Source: a virus (lineage: Duplodnaviria > Heunggongvirae > Uroviricota > Caudoviricetes). Taken from it: a DNA stretch of 39,964 bases. Under the pieces are notes generated by a model. It made no database searches. It was not told the origin of the DNA and saw nothing but the letters and a program-made list of their open reading frames with translations. The position numbers and the translations under genes are program-made. The DNA is taken from the IMG/VR virus record IMGVR_UViG_2711768042_000003; one strand, 5' to 3'. Below are positions 6,393-37,805 of the stretch, piece by piece; position 1 is the stretch's first letter, and every line of letters starts with the position of its first letter.

Positions 6393-7091
6393 TTACTGCG
6401 AAAGTTTGTTAATGGAAAGGAAGCCGCCAAAGTTGCCGACGTTATTGCGAAACTTACAGCCACTCAGGCATTTGCTGCATTTATCCTTCGTGATATCGGT
6501 TGTCGGCTGGTCATATTCATCCGCGACAGCCGGACCGTGATAACCGCACTCATCACCGCGATAGGTCCAGGTGCAGGTGTTGGCCAGCATGATACGTCCC
6601 GGAAAAACAGCGCCATCCGTTTCCGTCGGCGTGGACAGTACAAAAGAGGCACTCACCGCGCTCAGTTCGCTGCACTGCTCAATGCGCCAGCGGCTGATCA
6701 CCTCCTGCTCCGGATCGGCGCCACTGTTTCCGTTGACGAAGTTCACCGCATCCAGAAAACGGGCGTAAACCTTACGCCGGACCACCGTTCCACCGACCAG
6801 ACTCTGCAGATCTTCCGCCATCCCGGTGACCATACCGTACAGGTTAGAAACCGTCAGTGTGGGGCGCGTACTGGTGCCTTTGCCATTCAGTTCAAAACCA
6901 CTTCCCTGAATGGGATACGGCTGATACTGTCGCCCCTGCCAGGTGACCGGCTCACCTTTTTCGTTCAGCTCATTACAGAAAAAATAACGTTCTCCACCGA
7001 CCTCTGTCAGGTCGATTTCCCAGAGCACCACGCTGGCCGACTGCTCCGCACGGGTGCATTCATTCAGTGTTTCCTGCCGGATATCCTGCAT
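6393..7091 (-). CDS. L: tail tip protein L
   Basis: 232 aa, lambda L-like throughout including C-terminal Cys cluster. Confidence 0.95.
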   Translation of the reverse strand: MQDIRQETLNECTRAEQSASVVLWEIDLTEVGGERYFFCNELNEKGEPVTWQGRQYQPYPIQGSGFELNGKGTSTRPTLTVSNLYGMVTGMAEDLQSLVGGTVVRRKVYARFLDAVNFVNGNSGADPEQEVISRWRIEQCSELSAVSASFVLSTPTETDGAVFPGRIMLANTCTWTYRGDECGYHGPAVADEYDQPTTDITKDKCSKCLSGCKFRNNVGNFGGFLSINKLSQ

Positions 7092-7420
7092 CAGTTCACC
7101 ACCTGTTCAAACTCTGCGCTGAACTCAACACGCAGCATACTGACCCGCGACGACCATTTTGCGCAGGTCACCTTTATCTGCCGCCACTCATAAGGCGGCG
7201 TCCACAGAAAGGCTTTCCAGCCCCCGTGCTCTTCCAGAAACGACTCCAGTACCGTGGCCTCCTCACGGGGGACAGAAAGCGTCACGCTGTACGTTTTCAG
7301 GTTGGCATTCAGCCCGGCAGGCGCTCGCTGGGAATAGCCATCACCAAAGCGCACCTTTCTTACAGAAGGGGCCGAAGCCACATCCATACCGGGTTTCACT
7401 TTCCAGCGGAAGGTTTTCAT
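7091..7420 (-). CDS. M: tail tip protein M
   Basis: 109 aa, lambda M-like. Confidence 0.95.
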   Translation of the reverse strand: MKTFRWKVKPGMDVASAPSVRKVRFGDGYSQRAPAGLNANLKTYSVTLSVPREEATVLESFLEEHGGWKAFLWTPPYEWRQIKVTCAKWSSRVSMLRVEFSAEFEQVVN

Positions 7421-9978
7421 CGTCCACCTCCGGAGAACAGGCCACCATCACGCATCTGTGTCTGAATTTCATCACGGGCACCCTTGCGGGCCATGTCATA
7501 CACTGCCTTCATCATCTGTGGACCTGGCAGACCATTCGTACCGTCGTTCTGAATCACCACGTGATTGTTCTGATTAAAATTAATGCCTTCAGCCCGCCGC
7601 ATCTGCGCCGGACTTCCGGCACCGCCCACATAACCACCTTCCGCATAGCCCCGCATCAGGCGGTACAGGTTGCCGACACCAATCCGGCTGGTTGCCTCCT
7701 TCGTGAAGACAAATTCACCACGGTGAACAATCCCCGCTGGCTCATATTTGCCGCCGGTTCCCGTAAATCCCCCGGTCGCAAAACGGAATTTCGCCGCAGC
7801 GGCCTGAATGGCTGTACCGCCTGACGCGGATGCTCCACCACTGGCAGCACCGCCAATGGCGCTGCCGATACTCCCGACAATCCCCACCATTGCCTGCTTA
7901 AGCAGAATTTCTGTCATCATGGACAGCACGGAACGGGTGAAGCTGCGCCAGTTCTGCTCACTGCCGGTCAGCATCGCCGCCATATTCTGTGCAATACCAT
8001 CAAAGGTCTGCGTGGCTGCACTTTTAACCTGCGACATACTGTCCGTGGCGCTCTCTTCCCACTCACTCCAGCCGGACTTCAGGCCTGCCATCCAGCTCCC
8101 GCGAAGCTGGTCTTCAGCCGCCCAGGTCTTTTTCTGCTCTGACATGACGTTATTCAGCGCCAGCGGATTATCGCCATACTGTTCCTTCAGGCGCTGTTCC
8201 GTGGCTTCCCGTTCTGCCTGCCGGTCAGTCAGCCCCCGGCTTTTCGCATCAATGGCGGCCCGTTTTGCCCGTTGCTGCTGTGCGAATTTATCCGCCTGCT
8301 GCGCCAGCGCGTTCAGGCGCTCCTGATACGTAACCTTGTCGCCAAGTGCAGCCAGCTGGCGTTTGTACTCCAGCGTCTCATCTTTATGCGCCAGCAGGGA
8401 TTTCTCCTGTGCAGACAGCTGGCGACGTTGCGCCGCCTCCTCCAGTACCGCGAACTGACTCTCCGCCTTCCACAAATCCCGGCGCTGCTGGCTGATTTTC
8501 TCATTCGCTCCGGCATGCTTCTCCAGCGTCCGGAGTTCTGCCTGAAGCGTCAGCAGGGCAGCATGAGCACTGTCTTCCTGACGATCGCCCGCAGACACCT
8601 TCACGCCGGACTGTTTCGGCTTTTTCAGCGTCGCTTCATAATCCTTTTTCGCCGCCGCCATCAGCGTGTTGTAATCCGCCTGCAGGATTTTCCCGTCTTT
8701 CAGTGCCTTGTTCAGTTCTTCCTGACGGGCGGTATATTTCTCCAGCGGCGTCTGCAGCCGTTCGTAAGCCTTCTGCGCCTCTTCGGTATATTTCAGCCGT
8801 GACGCTTCGGTATCGCTCTGCTGCTGCGCATTTTTGTCCTGTTGAGTCTGCTGCTCAGCCTTCTTTCGGGCGGCTTCAAGCGCAAGACGGGCCTTTTCAC
8901 GATCATCCCAGTAACGCGCCCGCGCTTCATCGTTAACAAAATAATCATCCTTGCGCAGATTCCAGATGTCGTCTGCTTTCTTAAACGCAGCCTCTGCCTT
9001 AATCAGCATCTCCTGCGCGGTATCAGGACGACCAATATCCAGCACCGCATCCCACATGGATTTGAATGCCCGCGCTGTCCTGTCTGCCCAGGTCTCCAGC
9101 GTGCCCATGTTCTCTTTCAGGCGGCGGGTCTGGTCATCAAACCCTTTCGTTGCGGCTTCGTTCGCCGCCTGCAATGCCCCGGCTTCATCGCCGGAACGCT
9201 GCAACTGAGCAACATACGCAATCTGCTCCGCCGTCACGTTATGGAACTGGCGCGCCATCGCCGTCAGCCCCGACGTCGGGTCAGTGGTCAGCTTCCCGAA
9301 GGCTTCAGCGACCTTGTCCACCTCCACGCCGGATGCAGAGGAGAAACGCGCCACACTCTGGCTGATGGACGCAATCTGAGCCTCACCGCTTACCCCCGCC
9401 TTAACCAGTGCACTGAGTGACTCGCTGGTCTGGTTAAACGTCAGCCCTGCCGCCTGCCCGGCTCTGGACAGGACCAGCATACGATCTGCCGTCAGACCTG
9501 ACTGATGACCGGAAAGGACCAGCGTTTTGTTGAAATCGGACAGGGTTGAGTTACCCTGATACCAGGCATACGCCAGCGCACCGGTCGCCACCGCCAGCGA
9601 GGTGGCCCCGACCATCGGCAGGGTGATCGCACCGGCAAGCCCCCGGAACATGGGGATCATCCCGCCGAAGGAGTCCTTAACCTGACCACCCTGTTGCAGC
9701 AGGATCAGCCACGGGCTTTGCCCGCCTGCAAGCTGCGTGGCCACGTCAGTGAACTGTGCAGGAAGCATACGCATGGCGGCTTTATACTGCCCGACGGAAA
9801 TCCCCGCTTTCTGTGCAGCCAGCGCCTGCCGGTTCATTGACTGTTCAACGACTGCCGCTGTTTTTTTCGCATCACTTTCCGTACCGGAAAAATGACGCCT
9901 GACTCTGGCCATCTGCTCGTCAAATCTGGCTGCATCCAGACTTAAATCAACGACCAGATCGCCTACCGGTTCAGCCAT
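7417..9978 (-). CDS. H: tail tape measure protein H
   Basis: 853 aa, same length as lambda H; coiled-coil centre, Gly-rich C-terminus. Confidence 0.95.
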   Translation of the reverse strand: MAEPVGDLVVDLSLDAARFDEQMARVRRHFSGTESDAKKTAAVVEQSMNRQALAAQKAGISVGQYKAAMRMLPAQFTDVATQLAGGQSPWLILLQQGGQVKDSFGGMIPMFRGLAGAITLPMVGATSLAVATGALAYAWYQGNSTLSDFNKTLVLSGHQSGLTADRMLVLSRAGQAAGLTFNQTSESLSALVKAGVSGEAQIASISQSVARFSSASGVEVDKVAEAFGKLTTDPTSGLTAMARQFHNVTAEQIAYVAQLQRSGDEAGALQAANEAATKGFDDQTRRLKENMGTLETWADRTARAFKSMWDAVLDIGRPDTAQEMLIKAEAAFKKADDIWNLRKDDYFVNDEARARYWDDREKARLALEAARKKAEQQTQQDKNAQQQSDTEASRLKYTEEAQKAYERLQTPLEKYTARQEELNKALKDGKILQADYNTLMAAAKKDYEATLKKPKQSGVKVSAGDRQEDSAHAALLTLQAELRTLEKHAGANEKISQQRRDLWKAESQFAVLEEAAQRRQLSAQEKSLLAHKDETLEYKRQLAALGDKVTYQERLNALAQQADKFAQQQRAKRAAIDAKSRGLTDRQAEREATEQRLKEQYGDNPLALNNVMSEQKKTWAAEDQLRGSWMAGLKSGWSEWEESATDSMSQVKSAATQTFDGIAQNMAAMLTGSEQNWRSFTRSVLSMMTEILLKQAMVGIVGSIGSAIGGAASGGASASGGTAIQAAAAKFRFATGGFTGTGGKYEPAGIVHRGEFVFTKEATSRIGVGNLYRLMRGYAEGGYVGGAGSPAQMRRAEGINFNQNNHVVIQNDGTNGLPGPQMMKAVYDMARKGARDEIQTQMRDGGLFSGGGR

Positions 9979-10405
9979 ACCGGACTCCTCCTGCGATCCC
10001 TTCTGATACTGTCATCAGCATTACGTCATCCTCCGTCATGTCCGCTACATCCGGGGAAGCGGGGATAACTTCATTCCCGTCCGGGCCAAAGCGGACGCCT
10101 CCGGCAAGCCCTGCCGCTTTCTGCATCAGCACATCATCTTCAGGCTCTTCGTCAGCCTCGCGCCGGTTCAGCAGACTGAAATCCAGCGGATGCATATCCG
10201 GATCGCTGAAAAACAGGCTGAGTACGGTGTACGTCAGCCCGGAAAAGTGCATATCCAGCAGGACATCATGAAAATAATGGGTACTGTAAAAGCGGTGCCA
10301 GTCGGCATACTCCGTGGATGACATCCCGGCAAGCATGGCGCGCCAGTCGGGTCGCCCCATCTCACGCGCCAGTTTCAGGGCAAAACTCAGCTCACCGTCG
10401 AACAC
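9971..10405 (-). CDS. T: T portion of the G-T tail assembly chaperone (reached by -1 frameshift from G)
   Basis: Open frame overlapping the G 3' end in the -1 frame; begins at the slippery heptamer. Confidence 0.8.
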   Translation of the reverse strand: MFDGELSFALKLAREMGRPDWRAMLAGMSSTEYADWHRFYSTHYFHDVLLDMHFSGLTYTVLSLFFSDPDMHPLDFSLLNRREADEEPEDDVLMQKAAGLAGGVRFGPDGNEVIPASPDVADMTEDDVMLMTVSEGIAGGVRYG

Positions 10406-25411: not shown

Positions 25412-25723
25412 ATGTTTAACGTGATAACCCACCCTGCAGCACTGGATGAACTGCTTGAACTACCAGATGATTTGCGAGGTCGCATGACCAGATTAATTGA
25501 GCGACTGGAGAAGGAAGGCAACAAACTGAAGATGCCCCATAGCCGTGTAATAGGTGGAGGGCTTTTTGAACTACGAGTAGGGGATAAAAACATCGCAAGA
25601 ACGCTGTACGCCTACGCGACTGGTAACGAAATTTATCTATTGCATGCATTTGTAAAAAAGACACAGAAAACACCGGTGAAGGCTATCGAAATCGCCAGAA
25701 CTCGCCTGAAGGAGATGAACTGA
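25412..25723 (+). CDS. RelE/ParE-superfamily toxin, Gp49/HigB-like
   Basis: 103 aa; GGAGG RBS; toxin-first order with ATGA overlap onto an XRE antitoxin. Confidence 0.75.
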   Translation: MFNVITHPAALDELLELPDDLRGRMTRLIERLEKEGNKLKMPHSRVIGGGLFELRVGDKNIARTLYAYATGNEIYLLHAFVKKTQKTPVKAIEIARTRLKEMN

Positions 25724-26010
25724 TGAAAGCGAAAGGCATCCCGTTTAACGAAGTAAAAGAAAAACTTCTCAACACTCCAGAAGCCATCAAAGGATATGAA
25801 GAGGCCGATAAAGAGCTGGAGATGGTCGAAATGTTATACGAAATGAGGGAAAGAGCAGGTTTAACGAAGTCAGCTCTGGCTGAACGAATGGGATTGCGCC
25901 CGTCAGCTATCAGCCGCCTGGAAAGCAATCCTTTAGGGGCAAGCATGAAAACTTTATCAAAATATGCCCAAGCATGCGGTGCAACGATTAATATTAATGC
26001 CGTCTATTGA
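25723..26010 (+). CDS. HTH XRE-family antitoxin (HigA-like)
   Basis: 95 aa with XRE-type HTH (LTKSALAERMGLRPSAISRLE). Confidence 0.75.
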   Translation: MKAKGIPFNEVKEKLLNTPEAIKGYEEADKELEMVEMLYEMRERAGLTKSALAERMGLRPSAISRLESNPLGASMKTLSKYAQACGATININAVY

Positions 26011-26053: not shown

Positions 26054-26272
26054 TCAATGATGCAAACACTCAACAGCAATAACTTGTTGGCAATTCTGAG
26101 CAATCTCCCGCGACATACTAACAAGTCGTGAAATCTCGCCAAGATGCAAGCTGGCTTCTGGAGAAGCCAGAGCAACGCTAACCAGATCTAAAACGGCGTC
26201 GATGTCTTTTAGGTTTGATCCGAGTTCTTCAAGAGTTGATACAGGTGCTTCAGTCATTGAATCTAATACCAT
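26054..26272 (-). CDS. hypothetical small protein behind a LexA-box-like site
   Basis: 72-aa ORF, start 23 bp from the CTGT-N8-ACAG site. Confidence 0.5.
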   Translation of the reverse strand: MVLDSMTEAPVSTLEELGSNLKDIDAVLDLVSVALASPEASLHLGEISRLVSMSREIAQNCQQVIAVECLHH

Positions 26273-26294: not shown

Positions 26295-26312
26295 TACTGT
26301 ATAAAATTACAG
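26295..26312. promoter_or_regulatory. LexA-box-like site TACTGTATAAAATTACAG
   Basis: CTGT-N8-ACAG with AT-rich spacer, matching the SOS box consensus. Confidence 0.5.
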
Positions 26313-29790: not shown

Positions 29791-30501
29791 TTACAAAGGC
29801 AGAATGGCACTTCCTGCCCGATGGCGTTTGATGATTTCACTGCGCTTCTCCGCCGCATTTAATAATGCAGTTCGATTTAAGCTCAGACATCGCGACTTAA
29901 TTAAAAGCCAGCGTTCTTTATAATCTTGTCTCCAGCTATCAATAGATATATTCAGTAGAAAACTCAGCTGCCTGTCCTGTTCTCTATCATCAACTGCCTC
30001 AGCACACGTAAGTTCTGACTTAACCTGCTGTGCCGCGTAATAAATCAATTTTCTCATGGCTTTTTTCGTGGAGGCCTTCATTTTTTTAAACCCGCCACCC
30101 GAATGCGCAACCAGAAAATCAAGCCATAACCACTGACAAACAATCACATCATTGTTGTAGTTAGGCTTGCATCCGTAGCAATAATAAAGCCAGGCTGATT
30201 CCTCGTTATTCAACTGACCAATAGCCCTGCGCCAGCTGGCGCTCTGAAAATCAATATCAGTGAGCAACATTGATGATTGTTTAAATGTTTTGCCCTGGTG
30301 GAATCTAACCGGCTCAGCAGGAACAGACACTTCGTATGAGTTATCATCACCTACACTGATTGACCGGACTGGTTTATTGTTAAAGCGTCCTGATCTGCCT
30401 AGACGCATCTGCTCAAGCTGGACCTCTAGGATGCCACGCTGGCGATAATGAATATCAGCCAATGCCGTGGAGACGCAGCTGCGTATATACTCAAGCTCCA
30501 C
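29791..30501 (-). CDS. hypothetical early protein, possible Q-like antiterminator by position
   Basis: 236 aa directly downstream of the cro-like gene; Cys cluster YYCYGC; no family recognised. Confidence 0.5.
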   Translation of the reverse strand: MELEYIRSCVSTALADIHYRQRGILEVQLEQMRLGRSGRFNNKPVRSISVGDDNSYEVSVPAEPVRFHQGKTFKQSSMLLTDIDFQSASWRRAIGQLNNEESAWLYYCYGCKPNYNNDVIVCQWLWLDFLVAHSGGGFKKMKASTKKAMRKLIYYAAQQVKSELTCAEAVDDREQDRQLSFLLNISIDSWRQDYKERWLLIKSRCLSLNRTALLNAAEKRSEIIKRHRAGSAILPL

Positions 30502-30739
30502 GCTTACGGCTCTCCTTAATCGACTGCTTTACCCGCCGAGTTGTAAAGTCACTCTTCAGCTTGTAAGCAGTACGAACTTCAATATCACTTTGCCGCAATG
30601 AAGGAATCTCTCCAGCGGTTAACCATTGGTAAACAGCACCGGGTGTTACACCTACCCCAGCCGCTGCTTTTTCTACACTGCCAAAGTGGCGAATAAGTTC
30701 TTCTGGTTTCATGCGGTTATTATAAGCAATAAATCGCAT
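30491..30739 (-). CDS. cro: Cro-like HTH regulator
   Basis: 82 aa with HTH (VEKAAAGVGVTPGAVYQWL), divergent from the CI-like repressor; start may be the internal Met at 30712. Confidence 0.7.
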   Translation of the reverse strand: MRFIAYNNRMKPEELIRHFGSVEKAAAGVGVTPGAVYQWLTAGEIPSLRQSDIEVRTAYKLKSDFTTRRVKQSIKESRKRGA

Positions 30740-30740
30740 T

Positions 30741-30780
30741 TAAAGCCAGCTATAATAAATAAATTTTATAGCCAGCTATA
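30741..30780. promoter_or_regulatory. immunity operators: two 14-bp sites TAAAGC-CA-GCTATA and TATAGC-CA-GCTATA
   Basis: Inverted-repeat half-sites, centres 26 bp apart, between the divergent repressor genes and overlapping TATAAT-like hexamers. Confidence 0.55.
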
Positions 30781-30803
30781 AGAAGATCATTTATGATTAA
30801 GCT

Positions 30804-31400
30804 ATGAAAACACGAGGCGAACGACTGAAAGCACGCCGTTTAGAGATGAAGCTGACGTTGCGAGAAGTTGCTGAGGCTGTCGATATCTCTATTGCAGGCG
30901 TCCAAAACTTAGAACGTGGCGACGTAATGCCGTCACTGGAGATAGGTATTGCCCTGGCTAAATGCTTACGCAAGCCAGTGCATTGGGTGCTGTATGGGAC
31001 AGAATATGACCCTGATCGCATTCCTGTTATTGGCACAACTGAAAGTGGACCTGATGAAGAGTGGAAGCCAGGACAGGTTCCAAATACTGAGCGATTCCTG
31101 CCATTCATCAGCCAGCGCAATACTGTTTATGCGTTAACTATCAGCAATCTGGCGCAGGGAAACTATCAGCCAGGCGATTTTCTCCTGGTCGATTCTGCGC
31201 TGGAACTGGTTCCCGGCGAGGATGTTCTGGTTCGTGATACTGCAGGAAATATCACCATCCAGCGCCTGGCCCGTTTTGATGATGAAAATTACTATCTGGA
31301 CGGAACAAATTCACAACGCGCCATCTTCAGGAAAAGCGATCTTGAATTTGTTCACCAAATAGTCGGAACGATCAAATCATTCATGGTTGAGGGTAGATGA
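30804..31400 (+). CDS. CI/LexA-like prophage repressor (HTH plus S24-like C-terminal domain)
   Basis: N-terminal XRE HTH; C-terminal LexA-like fold; Gln where the catalytic Lys is expected (ITIQRL). Confidence 0.85.
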   Translation: MKTRGERLKARRLEMKLTLREVAEAVDISIAGVQNLERGDVMPSLEIGIALAKCLRKPVHWVLYGTEYDPDRIPVIGTTESGPDEEWKPGQVPNTERFLPFISQRNTVYALTISNLAQGNYQPGDFLLVDSALELVPGEDVLVRDTAGNITIQRLARFDDENYYLDGTNSQRAIFRKSDLEFVHQIVGTIKSFMVEGR

Positions 31401-31501
31401 CTTAATACGGGGTTTATTGTTTGCTGTAAATCTGGTTTAATGCAGAGCATATGTTCTGTGGGTTGACTCAGGTTACAGCAGCAGAAAAAAGACGAAAAAA
31501 A

Positions 31502-31530
31502 ACCCGAGTCGGCAAACTCGGGTCCTTTTC
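31502..31530 (+). terminator. hairpin plus U-run downstream of the repressor
   Basis: Stem ACCCGAG/CTCGGGT, then CCTTTT; A-run upstream allows bidirectional use. Confidence 0.5.
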
Positions 31531-31645
31531 AGGAAGCAGCCACAGTAACGCGACGGATTCCGTCAATTCAAGATGCGTTTATTGTGGCTGCTCCTGCGGA
31601 TTTTTTCAACCCGAAAAAACATAATTCGCATGGAATGGCTAAAAA

Positions 31646-34600
31646 ATGACATTAAACGATTTCTATGCGGATCGCTTTGGCAGCGATCCGTTCTCGCTAA
31701 TTGAAGCAGCACGGGATGAACTAACCGAGCTGGCACAGATGGCTGGTATCAACTGGTCTGCCTGTTCCGACAACATCCAACTCAACCCTCGCGGGGGTGT
31801 TGAGCGTTACTCTTCATACAATAAAACATCTCCAGAAGCTCTCGAAAAGAGCCTCAAAGGACGCGTAGAAATTTACTCCCGGCTGGAACACAGCAAAGGG
31901 ATTGATTACCCGTTCATTAACTTCGTCCATAAAGGCAGCGATGCTGGCTCATGGAGCGGTTTCTCCTTCCTGTTTTCTGAATATCGCCGTGAGCAACAAC
32001 GGAATAATGCGACCGTGGTCGCACAACCGGAAGAAGAACGGGCAAGAATAGAACGTCAGGCCGAAGCACGTCGTCGCCGTGAAGAACAAAAACGAATTAA
32101 TGACCTGAAAAACAACCAAATGGACCATGAACGTTTGCTGGGATGGCTGGCATTCCACAGCGCGTGGGAACATGCTCCTGCAGAAGACGGCTCATGGCCA
32201 TATGCGATTAAAAAAGGTATTCGTGACGTTTTTAATTCGTGTGATGTGCGTCGCGTGACCAGTCACGACAGCGCAAAATGGAGCAGGGGGCCAACCACGT
32301 ATATGGCTATCCCTCTGGCTCACCTGGACGGTCGTTACGATGGTCGTATTGTGGGTTGGCAGCGAATCGACAAACAAGGTGGAAAATACCAGACCAGCGC
32401 CGTAACCAGCGGCGATTTCGTCGGTGCCTGCTTTGTTATCGGTGAGCTAAAAGGGGCGCAAAACATCGCTGTTACAGAAGGTTTTGCTACTGGTGCATCC
32501 ATCTGGCTTGCCACGAAAAAAGATAAACGCTTTGACGCTGTGGTTGTCGCTGTATCCGCTAATAACATGGTTCATGTTGTGGAACAACTGGTAAACATGT
32601 ACCCGGCGGCAAAAATCACCTGCGCACTGGATAATGACCGGAAATCAGCCACAGAAGGAAAAGGGAATACCGGCCTGCGGACTGGCTATGAAATCTTATC
32701 GAAATTCAACGATGTCCGCTGCGTCTATCCAACTTTTGAAGACGATCCGCAAATGGAGTGCAGTGACTTCAACGACCTGCACAAACTGCGTGGACTTCGT
32801 GAAACAGCACGTCAACTGTTTGCAACTGCAAACCGCCTGAAAACCGGCACTGATTTGCTATCTCTGACGCTCAACCGCCTGAAGACAATTAAGCGGGATA
32901 ACCGTCGTACTTTTGCCAAAGAGCTGCTGAGAGCGGTGGATATTGGCATGCTAACCTGTCCGGTTCCTAACAGTCCGTCAGACTTATTTAACATGTTCTG
33001 CATCGTTCTGCGTGAAATGGGGCTGGAAAATATCTATCGCGCTACGGTAAAAGACCACATTGCCCGTCGCCTGAATAAAAAGTGCCGTATTGCCCAGGCT
33101 CCGCGCTCATTCAGCGAACGCATAACTGATCCCAATAAACGTCCTCAACATATCACCTATAAGCGTTTTGAAACTTCGGTAATGACCGATGACGTCCTGA
33201 AGTATGTGCAATCACTACAGGGGATAGTCATCGTTCGTGCTGGTATGGGTTCCGGCAAATCTACTGGATTGTTACGACCTTTAATGCATAGCTCAGAACG
33301 TGGTATCTCTGTTGCTCACCGTGTTTCCCTTATTGGTGGCCTGTGGGAAATGATGACAGAAGGAAAAGGTGTAAAAGCCGATATCCTGCACTATCAGGAC
33401 CCTGGCTATCAGGAAATGGCTCCATACGCCAGTAAACTGACCATCTGCATAAACTCGATTGTTAAAAACTGCTGGCAACCGTTGATGCGCCAGCACGACT
33501 ATTTTGGCTTTGACGAGGCCACGCAAGGGCTACGTGCCGTTCTTTCCGGTCGGGCTATGGAAAACCCGGTGGCTGTATTCAATACGTTAATCGACGCGCT
33601 GGCCAGAACGGAACAACACCCAATAATGGTGGATGCTGATGCGAACGATCTGCTGGTTGACCTGGCTGAACTGGCTATGAAACGCCGTGAAGAACTAGGT
33701 TTACCGGCATGGCTGCAGATCCACGTAATTGAATTACCTGTTGATGTTCGCAACCGCGAAACAGGTGAGCCAATCCGGGTTTTTTATACAGAAAAAGATC
33801 GCATTATGACCGAGGTGGTGAAAGCTGTATCGGATGGCGAAAAAATCATGTTGGCCACCGACAGCTCCACCTTTGCAGAAGATGTGACAGCCACCCTGAG
33901 AATGCATTTTCCTGGTAAGAAATTTCTGTGTGTAAACCAGAAAAACAAACCAGAGCCAGAAGTTGAAGCATTTACCAATCAACCGAAAAAGATGGTCAAA
34001 AAATACGACGGCCTGATTTATAGCCCGTCTATTTCATCCGGTGTGTCGATTGAGCAAAAACATTTTGACCGTCATTTCGGCATGTTCTGTGGTGAAGTTG
34101 TACCCAGCGACGCAGTGCAAATGCTACGCCGCGACCGTACAGCAAAAGAATTTATTATCGGCTTTGATAAAGCTCGCGCAAAACGTGAAACTGACCCGCA
34201 AAAAATAGAACGAGCATTCGCCCAGGCATTGCTTGCTACCGCAGGCATGAACGGTGAACTGACGGATGTCGTTTTCGATGGCGACCGTATATCAATGGGG
34301 GTGGCCAATACCGACTTTACCAGGATGAAAATTAAAGCAGCCGCAATTGAAGCGTCTGCGCGTAACGACTACGCCAGCAACATGATCTGCATCATGCACA
34401 GCGACGGTTATAAGGTATCGCCGCTGGCCACCGATTATGCTGCGAATGATATCGGTAAAGATCTGCGTAAAGAAGCGCGGGATATTGTGTGGGAACAGAC
34501 ACTGGATCTGCATCTCAATACAGAAACTCCACAAGAATCAGAGCGTGAAGAACTGCTAAAAAAACGCGCGCTGACGCTTGAAGAACAAGCAAAACTTGTC

Positions 34601-35641
34601 CGCTGGGATATTGAGAACGAACTGAAACTACCGGTTGAAGAAGGCACGCTGAAATTCTATTTCGATGGTGCTCGAGACAAAGTTCGCCGCTATGAAACAA
34701 TGCTTTTAGATGAGGTAACAGCTCGTCGTTACGACCGGGAAGAAGCAGCCATCAATTTTACCTACGCATACCGTCAGGCGGGACAGTGGCAATATTTTGT
34801 AGTGACCGCGATGACTCGCGAGCAGGCTGATGATGTCTTTAAAACTAAATTCCCTGGAATAATCGACTACAAGGTAAAAGCTACTCCTACTGTTGAAGTC
34901 GGGGCGCGCGGTTTCTATGCGCTTAAATCAGCAACTCTCCGGCAGTACTTTATCGACTGCGGTATCAACCCTGAGACTATGACCGGCGAGGCGACTCAGG
35001 AGCGTCTCAAATTCGCTCGAGATAACCTCATGACAGCCGAACGCCGTGACCTGTTGAATAACGTTCTGCACATTGGTGGTTTTATGACGCCAAAAGGGAA
35101 GCCTAAAGTGCCGGAAGCGTTGTTTAAAAACATTTGCGACTCTCTTGGCCTTAAAACAGGTAAACGTCGCGGCAGAGACGGCGATAAGCGTCCAACCTTG
35201 CGTTTTGTTGAGCCTGAATCAGCGGCATTTATGCTGGATATTCTTGTTCAGCGTCAGAAAGATGGCCTAACCCTAAAAACGCGTAAAGCCGAGAAGACAG
35301 CCATCGAAATGGATCGCGATTTGGATCTCAATATATATATGGATGATAAAACGCGATCCACAAACGAGCAGGTTCAAAACGCCCCTCATTCAGTAATTTC
35401 TGAGGCTTTGGCCGTATTGCCGGTGGCTGTTCCTGAGTCCTGGGCGATGAGTGCGCTTTCCGGTGAGGAGCTGGCCACTATGTCATCATGGTCATCAGCC
35501 AGCATAGCTATGACGTTTGCATCTCTGTATCTCACAGAGTTCATGGATCACTTGTCCAGCAATGAATTGCGGCGGTTACGAGAATACATTACCGGGAATA
35601 GCTCATGCAGCTACGAAGAGCAGGGCGCTTTCTATGGGTAA
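31646..35641 (+). CDS. repA: multidomain replication protein RepA (primase Toprim plus P-loop helicase)
   Basis: 1331 aa; Toprim motifs (VTEGFATG, DND); Walker A GMGSGKST; Walker B FGFDEA. Confidence 0.9.
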   Translation: MTLNDFYADRFGSDPFSLIEAARDELTELAQMAGINWSACSDNIQLNPRGGVERYSSYNKTSPEALEKSLKGRVEIYSRLEHSKGIDYPFINFVHKGSDAGSWSGFSFLFSEYRREQQRNNATVVAQPEEERARIERQAEARRRREEQKRINDLKNNQMDHERLLGWLAFHSAWEHAPAEDGSWPYAIKKGIRDVFNSCDVRRVTSHDSAKWSRGPTTYMAIPLAHLDGRYDGRIVGWQRIDKQGGKYQTSAVTSGDFVGACFVIGELKGAQNIAVTEGFATGASIWLATKKDKRFDAVVVAVSANNMVHVVEQLVNMYPAAKITCALDNDRKSATEGKGNTGLRTGYEILSKFNDVRCVYPTFEDDPQMECSDFNDLHKLRGLRETARQLFATANRLKTGTDLLSLTLNRLKTIKRDNRRTFAKELLRAVDIGMLTCPVPNSPSDLFNMFCIVLREMGLENIYRATVKDHIARRLNKKCRIAQAPRSFSERITDPNKRPQHITYKRFETSVMTDDVLKYVQSLQGIVIVRAGMGSGKSTGLLRPLMHSSERGISVAHRVSLIGGLWEMMTEGKGVKADILHYQDPGYQEMAPYASKLTICINSIVKNCWQPLMRQHDYFGFDEATQGLRAVLSGRAMENPVAVFNTLIDALARTEQHPIMVDADANDLLVDLAELAMKRREELGLPAWLQIHVIELPVDVRNRETGEPIRVFYTEKDRIMTEVVKAVSDGEKIMLATDSSTFAEDVTATLRMHFPGKKFLCVNQKNKPEPEVEAFTNQPKKMVKKYDGLIYSPSISSGVSIEQKHFDRHFGMFCGEVVPSDAVQMLRRDRTAKEFIIGFDKARAKRETDPQKIERAFAQALLATAGMNGELTDVVFDGDRISMGVANTDFTRMKIKAAAIEASARNDYASNMICIMHSDGYKVSPLATDYAANDIGKDLRKEARDIVWEQTLDLHLNTETPQESEREELLKKRALTLEEQAKLVRWDIENELKLPVEEGTLKFYFDGARDKVRRYETMLLDEVTARRYDREEAAINFTYAYRQAGQWQYFVVTAMTREQADDVFKTKFPGIIDYKVKATPTVEVGARGFYALKSATLRQYFIDCGINPETMTGEATQERLKFARDNLMTAERRDLLNNVLHIGGFMTPKGKPKVPEALFKNICDSLGLKTGKRRGRDGDKRPTLRFVEPESAAFMLDILVQRQKDGLTLKTRKAEKTAIEMDRDLDLNIYMDDKTRSTNEQVQNAPHSVISEALAVLPVAVPESWAMSALSGEELATMSSWSSASIAMTFASLYLTEFMDHLSSNELRRLREYITGNSSCSYEEQGAFYG
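32008..32025. promoter_or_regulatory. centromere-like palindrome inside repA (outer base of one arm mismatched)
   Basis: ATGCGACC-GT-GGTCGCAC, encodes NATVVAQ in the RepA frame. Confidence 0.45.
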
Positions 35642-36970: not shown

Positions 36971-37083
36971 TTGACGTGTGCGTCGTTTTGGAGGTAAAGT
37001 CACCTCGCTGCGGTAAATCCCGCAGTCGGGACTTCGCAATCCTGGCAAAACGAAGCGCACAACACGCGCCAGCGTGTTTTTTT
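36971..37083 (+). ncRNA. candidate small regulatory RNA (c4/CI-like) with promoter and terminator
   Basis: Possible -35 TTGACG, 18 bp, -10 TAAAGT; stem-loop 37008-37025; terminator ACACGC-GCCA-GCGTGT plus U-run at 37062-37083; no long ORF. Confidence 0.35.
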
Positions 37084-37249
37084 GTGTGTATAGACCTGCG
37101 CATATCCGAATTATGGTGGCTCAGGTGGGGCTGACTTCGGTCGGGCCGGTTTCTTCGTTTACCGGTATTGCGAACCCCGCCTGGGCTACCACCAATAAAG
37201 AGATTCGCAACTCTGGTGGTAGCACGACCAATAAAACGGAGTGCATACC

Positions 37250-37414
37250 ATGTTCAAATTCAAATTTGCGGCAGTCGTTCGCACAGACAAAAAGTCCCAC
37301 ATTCATCATCTTTCCACTATCGCGTCATCTGAACGGGAAGCTCGTCGCCAGTTCGCCAGCCGGTTTGTCCTGGTATTGTCTGCCCGTATTCCGGTGCGCG
37401 AGGTGGCTGCATGA
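37250..37414 (+). CDS. small ORF (54 aa), first of three translationally coupled ORFs
   Basis: GGAG RBS; sequence MFKFKFAAVVRTDKK; stop overlaps the next start as ATGA. Confidence 0.45.
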   Translation: MFKFKFAAVVRTDKKSHIHHLSTIASSEREARRQFASRFVLVLSARIPVREVAA

Positions 37415-37644
37415 ATCAGGTAAAAATGAACACTGTTGGCCTGCTGGAATCGTTGGATGAACGTCTGGCTCAGGTCTATGCGCTCGTATCATCAGCCCAT
37501 CGGACAGTCTCCAGTTGTGAGGCGTCGATTTACCTCTCAGAGGCTGGAAAACTTCTGCAGATTGCGTGTGAGTTAACGCATGAAGCACAGGGATATTCTG
37601 CGTCTCTCTCGTCGCACTTGCTGCGCGATAAGGAGGCTGAATGA
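37411..37644 (+). CDS. hypothetical protein (77 aa)
   Basis: ATGA overlaps at both ends. Confidence 0.5.
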   Translation: MNQVKMNTVGLLESLDERLAQVYALVSSAHRTVSSCEASIYLSEAGKLLQIACELTHEAQGYSASLSSHLLRDKEAE

Positions 37645-37805
37645 GCGCGTTAGCAGTCTTTTCCTTTCAGGAAGAGCATCAGGTTCGTGTAGTGATGATC
37701 AACGGCGAACCGTGGTTTGTTGCATCTGATGTGTGTATGGCGGCGGGTATTGATTCTACGGCTATCAGAAAGTTGGATGAGGACGAAAAGGGGCAGGCGA
37801 GGTAG
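37641..37805 (+). CDS. short Bro-N-like ORF (antirepressor N-domain fragment)
   Basis: AAGGAGG RBS; HQVRVVMINGEPWFVASDVCMAAG resembles the start of Bro-N/antirepressor domains but the ORF is only 54 aa. Confidence 0.45.
   Translation: MSALAVFSFQEEHQVRVVMINGEPWFVASDVCMAAGIDSTAIRKLDEDEKGQAR

Follow-up and report, generated by a model that had tools for sequence, protein, structure and literature searches.

The CB repressor of an N15-like telomere phage carries an S24 domain with its catalytic residues replaced and is very probably switched off by a LexA-controlled antirepressor

The open reading frame at positions 30804..31400 (+ strand) is, judged by homology and gene order, the gene for CB, the main prophage repressor of the N15 type. 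The DNA that carries it, a 39,964-nucleotide stretch from the IMG/VR virus record IMGVR_UViG_2711768042_000003 (hereafter, the window), is by the same comparisons that of an N15-like telomere phage, i.e. a linear plasmid-prophage. In the alignments described below, the C-terminal domain of CB is an S24 domain with other residues in place of the nucleophilic Ser, the general-base Lys and the Ala of the scissile bond. The loss of the Ser, the Lys and the Ala-Gly site argues that CB works as a non-cleavable repressor and not as an active S24 peptidase. We consider it very probable that the gene is an N15-type cB with a dead S24 domain and that the small antirepressor AntC, encoded elsewhere in the window under the control of LexA, is the likely off-switch. 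The CB/AntC circuit of the window is, by homology, the already known, published N15 circuit in a 78%-identical allele.

Similar to lambda CI, CB (198 residues) follows a two-domain plan of an HTH domain and a C-terminal β domain. The DNA-binding domain (residues 8–61, positions 30825..30986, + strand) is a Pfam HTH_3 domain (PF01381, E 3.4e-11) and matched the HTH domains of DdrO, P22 C2 and 434 Cro/CI in a search of the PDB, and the protein as a whole is assigned to phrog_4, 'transcriptional repressor' (PHROG, E 2.9e-25). The C-terminal domain is less easily recognised. Residues 99–171 give a sub-threshold Pfam match to Peptidase_S24 (PF00717) with 21.3 bits vs a cut-off of 23.3, and in a single-sequence phmmer search of CB against the PDB the HTH domain alone matched convincingly, UmuD being found at E ~0.7. 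Scores above the Pfam cut-off are reached by N15 CB (P0004, 34.9 bits) and by the homologue P0054 (61.7 bits, a full-length S24 match). The AlphaFold2 model of CB has a mean pLDDT of 88.4, and its top Foldseek matches are the C-terminal domains of lambda CI, LexA and UmuD (E 4e-6 to 1e-3), with which the C-terminal domain of CB has its fold in common. By this model and by the hhalign comparison described below, the domain is an S24 fold, and the first-pass annotation, which had called the gene CI-like with a C-terminal domain of the LexA/CI S24 type, was right on both counts. Inside cB, there is an antisense ORF of 107 codons (30797–31120, − strand). A similar ORF, labelled 'unknown' and with a ribosome-binding site of its own, is annotated in N15 record U45242. 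The ORF in the window was considered as a gene and set aside, as no evidence was found in support of it or of its expression.

Three alignments (a family alignment, a HMMER profile and hhalign) agree on which residues of CB occupy the catalytic positions. The family alignment consists of 23 homologues and includes P0054, which is 42% identical to CB and has an intact Ser-Lys dyad. Here, QAGPD, GDSMK and VMVKRL of P0054 stand opposite ESGPD, SNLAQ and ITIQRL of CB, and the cleavage region reads IGTTESGPD in CB and IGNTQAGPD in P0054. In the HMMER profile comparison of the C-terminal domains (E 0.012), GDSM (S60) and FTVKKL (K97) of UmuD fall opposite the profile columns of A117 and Q153, and the K97A mutant chain of UmuD, 8gmt_B, confirms which Lys is catalytic. 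In the hhalign comparison of the CB family with LexA, CI and UmuD (probability 89%, E 2.3e-6), for which P0054 was left out of the CB set and the reference sequences had their catalytic residues at the expected numbering when checked, LexA S119 is opposite A117 and LexA K156 is opposite Q153. Taken singly, the sequence-profile matches to S24 structures are weak (E 0.01–0.5), and the mapping of A117 and Q153 is accepted because these matches agree with hhalign and with the family alignment.

The Ser nucleophile (LexA S119, CI S149, UmuD S60) is thus absent in CB, where its position is taken by Ala117 (GCG, 31152..31154, + strand), and the general-base Lys (LexA K156, CI K192, UmuD K97) gives way to Gln153 (CAG, 31260..31262, + strand) in the strand NITIQRL (residues 149–155 of the translated ORF). 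Over the alignments, SNLAQ of CB stands opposite GDSM or GMSM, and ITIQRL opposite VTVKRL, FTVKKL and VMVKRL. The linker has neither an Ala-Gly nor a Cys-Gly scissile bond and carries Ser81-Gly82 (AGT GGA, 31044..31049, + strand) at this place, a mapping that comes from the family alignment, as the segment lies outside the hhalign alignment. The first-pass annotation had noticed the Gln and the lack of a GDSM-type Ser by eye and had proposed an alignment against LexA, lambda CI and UmuD as a check; that alignment finds no Ser or Lys at the catalytic positions. N15 CB likewise has Gln at the Lys position and a residue other than Ser at the Ser position. The latter is Ala in the window, but Ile in the GenBank sequence of N15 CB and Ile or Val in other N15-type homologues.

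Despite the predicted loss of cleavage, the former cleavage-site loop IPVIGTTESGP (residues 72–83, positions 31017–31052) belongs to the best-conserved segments of the clade in which the dyad is dead. Across 20 sequences of this clade, P74, G77, G82 and P83 do not vary, and the motif can be written as PVIGxxx[ST]GP.

The strong conservation of a PVIGxxxxGP motif in the cleavage region is one of the observations that would fit a CB that cleaves itself through another Ser/Lys pair, e.g. K191-S192 in GTIKSF, or through S114. Other Ser and Lys residues are present in the C-terminal domain, and conservation of K191 and S192 is good within the close clade, although P0055–P0058 have Asn for K191. We nevertheless regard self-cleavage of this kind as highly improbable: S114 is unconserved and is a Gly in N15, all three alignments place non-catalytic residues in the canonical pocket of CB, and the scissile Ala is a Ser or Thr across the CB clade. 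Moreover, the 78%-identical N15 protein is non-proteolytic under SOS; in-gel labelling after ciprofloxacin treatment showed no proteolysis of the N15 repressor (Silpe et al. 2023, PMC10432266, Fig. 1b).

The surroundings of the gene are those of the N15 immB region. The 1.3 kb segment 30400–31700 is 100% identical in DNA sequence to Escherichia phage PhiR46_1 and 97% identical to YDC107_1, shows ~77.5% identity to immB of the linear plasmid-prophage N15, and resembles phiKO2 and a group of telomere phages of Klebsiella to a comparable degree. With the immB DNA as query, 14 records were found in the phage collection. The CB protein is 78% identical to N15 gp38 (CB) over 198 residues (E 3e-121), a divergence of 22%, and the cB ORF of the window starts four codons later than that of N15. 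The layout Q-cro-cB-repA is common to the two. A Q-type late antiterminator (29791..30501, − strand; PF06323, E 4e-85) and a cro gene of the P22_Cro family (30491..30739, − strand; PF14549, E 2.4e-22) are divergent from cB, and downstream of it runs repA (31646..35641, + strand), an ORF for a 1331-residue primase/replication protein syntenic with N15 gene 37.

The operator architecture is shared as well. In the N15 records, CB has three annotated operators in the cro-cB interval (OR1–3) and two upstream of repA (OL1–2), and CB operators have been described as 16-bp elements with a T-A-N10-T-A motif (PMC4997575). All five are recognisable in the window as predicted 16-bp operators with this motif. 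OR1 (TTATTATAAGCAATAA, 30717–30732), OR2 (TTAAAGCCAGCTATAA, 30740–30755) and OR3 (TTATAGCCAGCTATAA, 30766–30781) were located by alignment to the annotated N15 operators, and OL2 (31414–31429) and OL1 (31437–31452), upstream of repA, by alignment to the N15 cB-repA spacer, which shows 89% column identity to the window. OR1 overlaps the mechanically assigned start of the cro ORF (30739, 82 residues). This placement of OR1 suggests that the true start of cro is probably Met10 at 30712 (73 residues), as in N15, in which case OR1 would lie upstream of the gene. The leader of repA contains a GC-rich hairpin (AAAAAAACCCGAGTCGGCAAACTCGGGTCCTTTT, 31480–31535) that is almost identical to its N15 counterpart, for which the annotation gives a bidirectional terminator serving both the repA leader and an antisense (inc) RNA.

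The intact operators are also at odds with the idea that cB is a decaying or non-functional remnant whose catalytic residues were lost under relaxed selection. The sub-threshold Pfam S24 score of CB and the truncation or frameshift of some database relatives (P0026, P0036, P0038, P0039) would be expected of such a remnant. The ORF, however, is full length, its AlphaFold2 model is a confident one (pLDDT 88), and 33 columns of its highly conserved C-terminal domain are invariant among 20 clade sequences. The 99%-identity cluster of CB counts 156 member sequences, and in N15 and phiKO2 CB functions as a repressor (PMC4997575). Decay is, in our view, scarcely credible.

For N15 itself, the absence of catalytic residues and the dependence on an antirepressor have been reported. 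Hammerl et al. 2016 (PMC4997575) report for CB of phiKO2 and N15 that neither a RecA cleavage site nor the essential Ser and Lys could be detected. Silpe et al. (PMC10432266) state that N15 'is known to be subject to antirepression' and classify 210 of 271 repA-telN phages as N15-like with putatively non-autoproteolytic repressors. AntC is described as a LexA-controlled antirepressor that acts on the N15 repressor, and N15 induction as AntC-dependent, in Mardanov & Ravin 2007 as that work is cited by Lemire et al. 2011 (PMC3121763) and Hammerl et al. 2015 (PMC4488713). For the N15 orthologue, the two experimental checks that the first-pass annotation had asked for are thus in effect available. 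By analogy with these N15 experiments, CB of the window would not be cleaved, AntC would interact with it, and LexA would control AntC.

Both parts of an AntC module are found in the window, away from immB. The antC orthologue (26054..26272, − strand) encodes a small putative antirepressor of 72 residues, which is 57% identical (E 9e-27) to an unannotated, syntenic 75-residue N15 ORF located behind the N15 LexA box (CTGTATATAAACACAG), i.e. to antC. With no more than 57% identity, binding of AntC to its cognate CB in the window is a presumption by analogy with N15. The protein belongs to phrog_6301 and has a weak match to phrog_10889, 'anti-repressor'. Its ATG is preceded, 24 nt upstream, by a LexA (SOS) box, CTGTATAAAATTACAG (26297..26312), of the pattern CTGT-N8-ACAG. 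The first-pass annotation had reasoned that a repressor without the dyad implies antirepressor-dependent induction, and the antC orthologue behind its LexA box supports that reasoning. The pattern has two matches in the window vs 0.48 expected, and two or more matches occur in 8 of 100 shuffles. The second match (7911–7926) was rejected as a LexA box: it lies inside a minus-strand ORF (7417–9978), has a GC-rich core and was treated as a chance occurrence.

The box has counterparts in relatives with a dead dyad. In L004 (Salmonella) and L006, a near-consensus LexA box precedes a small ORF with the AntC motif, and in an alignment of four loci CTGT-N8-ACAGTA is the invariant core and the most conserved upstream element. 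Upstream of antC, a scan with the promoter consensus gave no sigma-70 promoter at its threshold. A candidate weak promoter can be read by eye, with a −35 hexamer TTGAGT (26324–26319) and a −10 hexamer TACAGT (26301–26296) that together have 8 of 12 matches and overlap the LexA box. The phage collection has 13 records with an AntC homologue. Twelve of them belong to the 14 retrieved by the immB DNA query, and Kpn_R1 was retrieved by the AntC query only. On its other side, antC adjoins two overlapping ORFs (103 and 95 residues, + strand, 25412–26010) that are homologous to N15 gp49 and gp48. The syntenic pair in L006 carries the Pfam Gp49 (PF05973) and HTH_3 domains, so the two ORFs probably form a HigB/HigA-like toxin–antitoxin pair.

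The window has a second candidate antirepressor. Positions 37007–37805 amount to a complete secondary immunity (immA) locus of the N15 type, with antB reduced to a remnant. The locus begins with an isrK-like element (Rfam, 37007–37082) and a C4-type antisense RNA (37109..37196, + strand; RF01695, 82.3 bits vs a gathering score of 45), the equivalent of the CA RNA of N15 immA. The role of this C4-type RNA in the anti-immunity operon of N15 is the subject of Ravin et al. 1999, going by the title under which it is cited in PMC4488713. A small icd-like ORF (37241–37414) follows, then the orthologue of the immA antirepressor gene antA (37411..37644, + strand, 63% identity to N15 gp31), and, at the position of N15 antB, a 54-residue Bro-N-like remnant (37641–37805). 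The combination of a C4-type RNA and antA is common to the window and N15 immA, whereas the N15 antB gene (gene 30) spans 795 bp. A C4 RNA upstream of an antirepressor operon is also found in the immI regions of P1/P7 and P22, where c4/sar RNA controls ant, but the AntA of the window is an AntC paralogue of ~77 residues and not a large Ant like that of P1 or P22.

AntA and AntC show no similarity to each other in BLASTP (E 0.19). An HMM of five AntC-like proteins, however, matches both AntA of the window (E 1.6e-8) and N15 gp31 (E 3.3e-10), and AntA and AntC therefore appear, by profile comparison, to be paralogues, a relationship that may be new. The two proteins have the core motif S-x-[ED]-[AC]-S-[LI]-[HFY]-x-x-E in common. 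A pair of such paralogues is also present in L001 (1274–1498 and 13017–13244).

With an intact C4 RNA (82 bits) and an antA orthologue paralogous to AntC in the window, AntA, which is controlled by antisense RNA and independent of SOS, might be the main inactivator of CB, and AntC a minor or non-functional one. At least one relative (L005), whose AntC homologue has no LexA box, would be in line with this. We hold it to be improbable, since the window has an intact antC ORF with an intact LexA box, both placed as in N15, and since N15 induction is reported to require AntC as its antirepressor, going by the title and citations of Mardanov & Ravin 2007. Besides, the AntA and AntC routes are not mutually exclusive. 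L005 itself deserves a brief description. The AntC homologue of this dead-dyad CB relative (6829–7041, − strand) lacks a LexA box, and upstream of it an inverted repeat, TTTAGTGC-N7-GCACTAAA, adjoins a divergent ORF of 106 residues (7291–7611, + strand). By analogy, the repeat and the 106-residue ORF could be a transcription-factor/small-ORF induction module as described in PMC10432266.

In the preferred reading, with AntC as the likely off-switch, the circuit would operate as follows. CB would bind the 16-bp operators OR1–3 and OL1–2 with its HTH_3 domain and keep the transcription of cro/Q and repA off. Its C-terminal domain would be a descendant of an S24 peptidase in which Ser has become Ala117, Lys has become Gln153 and Ala-Gly has become Ser81-Gly82; RecA-stimulated autocleavage would not take place, and the domain would be kept, presumably, for oligomerisation and/or as the receptor of the antirepressor. 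DNA damage would be sensed indirectly, with LexA repressing antC via the SOS box in the antC promoter. Upon LexA cleavage, AntC would accumulate, bind CB and inactivate it. AntA under the C4-type antisense RNA would provide a second, SOS-independent route. The regulatory logic of a non-cleavable repressor combined with a small LexA-controlled antirepressor encoded outside the immunity region is also that of the Gifsy-1/-3 repressors with GfoA/GftA and of coliphage 186 CI with Tum (PMC3121763). The repressor and antirepressor families of Gifsy-1/-3 and 186 are unrelated or distantly related to CB and AntC, and the likeness meant here is one of logic.

The loss of the dyad extends well beyond the window. 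Both residues are missing in 46 of the 48 close homologues of CB that could be aligned. Of the other two, P0057 has the Ser without the Lys at the aligned columns, and P0054 is the sole keeper of both. A search of 1.8 billion representatives with the CB profile gave 5416 matches and retrieved dyad-intact HTH-S24 repressors at E ~1e-20. A distant set (P0064–P0207) was composed of those among the best 150 of the 5416 matches that were new relative to the first set, and 105 of its members were alignable over the C-terminal domain. Both Ser and Lys are kept by 75 of the 105, whose cleavage site reads AG, GG, LG or MG, 20 have neither residue and mostly TG or SG at the site, and the remaining 10 keep one of the two alone. 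From these counts, the CB clade is a branch within the ordinary HTH-S24 repressors that is catalytically dead. Within the aligned family, dyad loss is recurrent among HTH-S24 repressors, and in CB it is neither chance nor a one-off. Apart from the catalytic positions, a few homologues are altered on a larger scale. In four Klebsiella sequences (P0036, P0039, P0045, P0046), an unrelated stretch, LVLNLILTAFLLLAQQ..., replaces the linker and cleavage loop, which looks like a local double frameshift, and P0026 and P0038 are truncated at the C-terminus.

The gene for P0054 is located at 10001–10606 of L003, a Logan contig (SRR11077329), in the same Q-cro-cB arrangement as in the window. In the available 10.7 kb of this contig, which is a single case and incomplete, no AntC-like ORF and no LexA box were found. 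From its sequence, P0054 may resemble a self-cleaving ancestor of the CB clade. As a dyad-intact protein from an antC-less stretch in the same gene context, it hints at how self-cleavage gave way to antirepression, and this may be new. A more far-reaching proposal, which we put forward as a speculation that is rather unlikely to hold in full, is that the CB clade records a switch in SOS sensing: members with a dead dyad would have acquired AntC-like ORFs with LexA boxes, and the cleavage loop and the dead cleft would have been reused as a docking surface for AntC and AntA, making CB a pseudo-protease receptor.

Since the CB/AntC system of N15 is already known, the antirepressor reading is not a new inference. 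Nor does it bring an open question within reach of a test for the first time, as the key experiments have been done in N15. The importance of the finding lies mainly in annotation. The closest database record labels cB as 'cI' and antC as 'hypothetical protein', and the RefSeq label of the N15 orthologue is 'LexA family transcriptional regulator'. Such 'cI' and LexA-family labels could wrongly suggest RecA-dependent self-cleavage. A circuit of the N15 type, with CB and LexA-controlled AntC, predicts instead that induction would be SOS-dependent but indirect, that mutations in antC can uncouple induction from SOS, and that the antirepressor of one N15-like element may act in trans on another that resides in the same cell.
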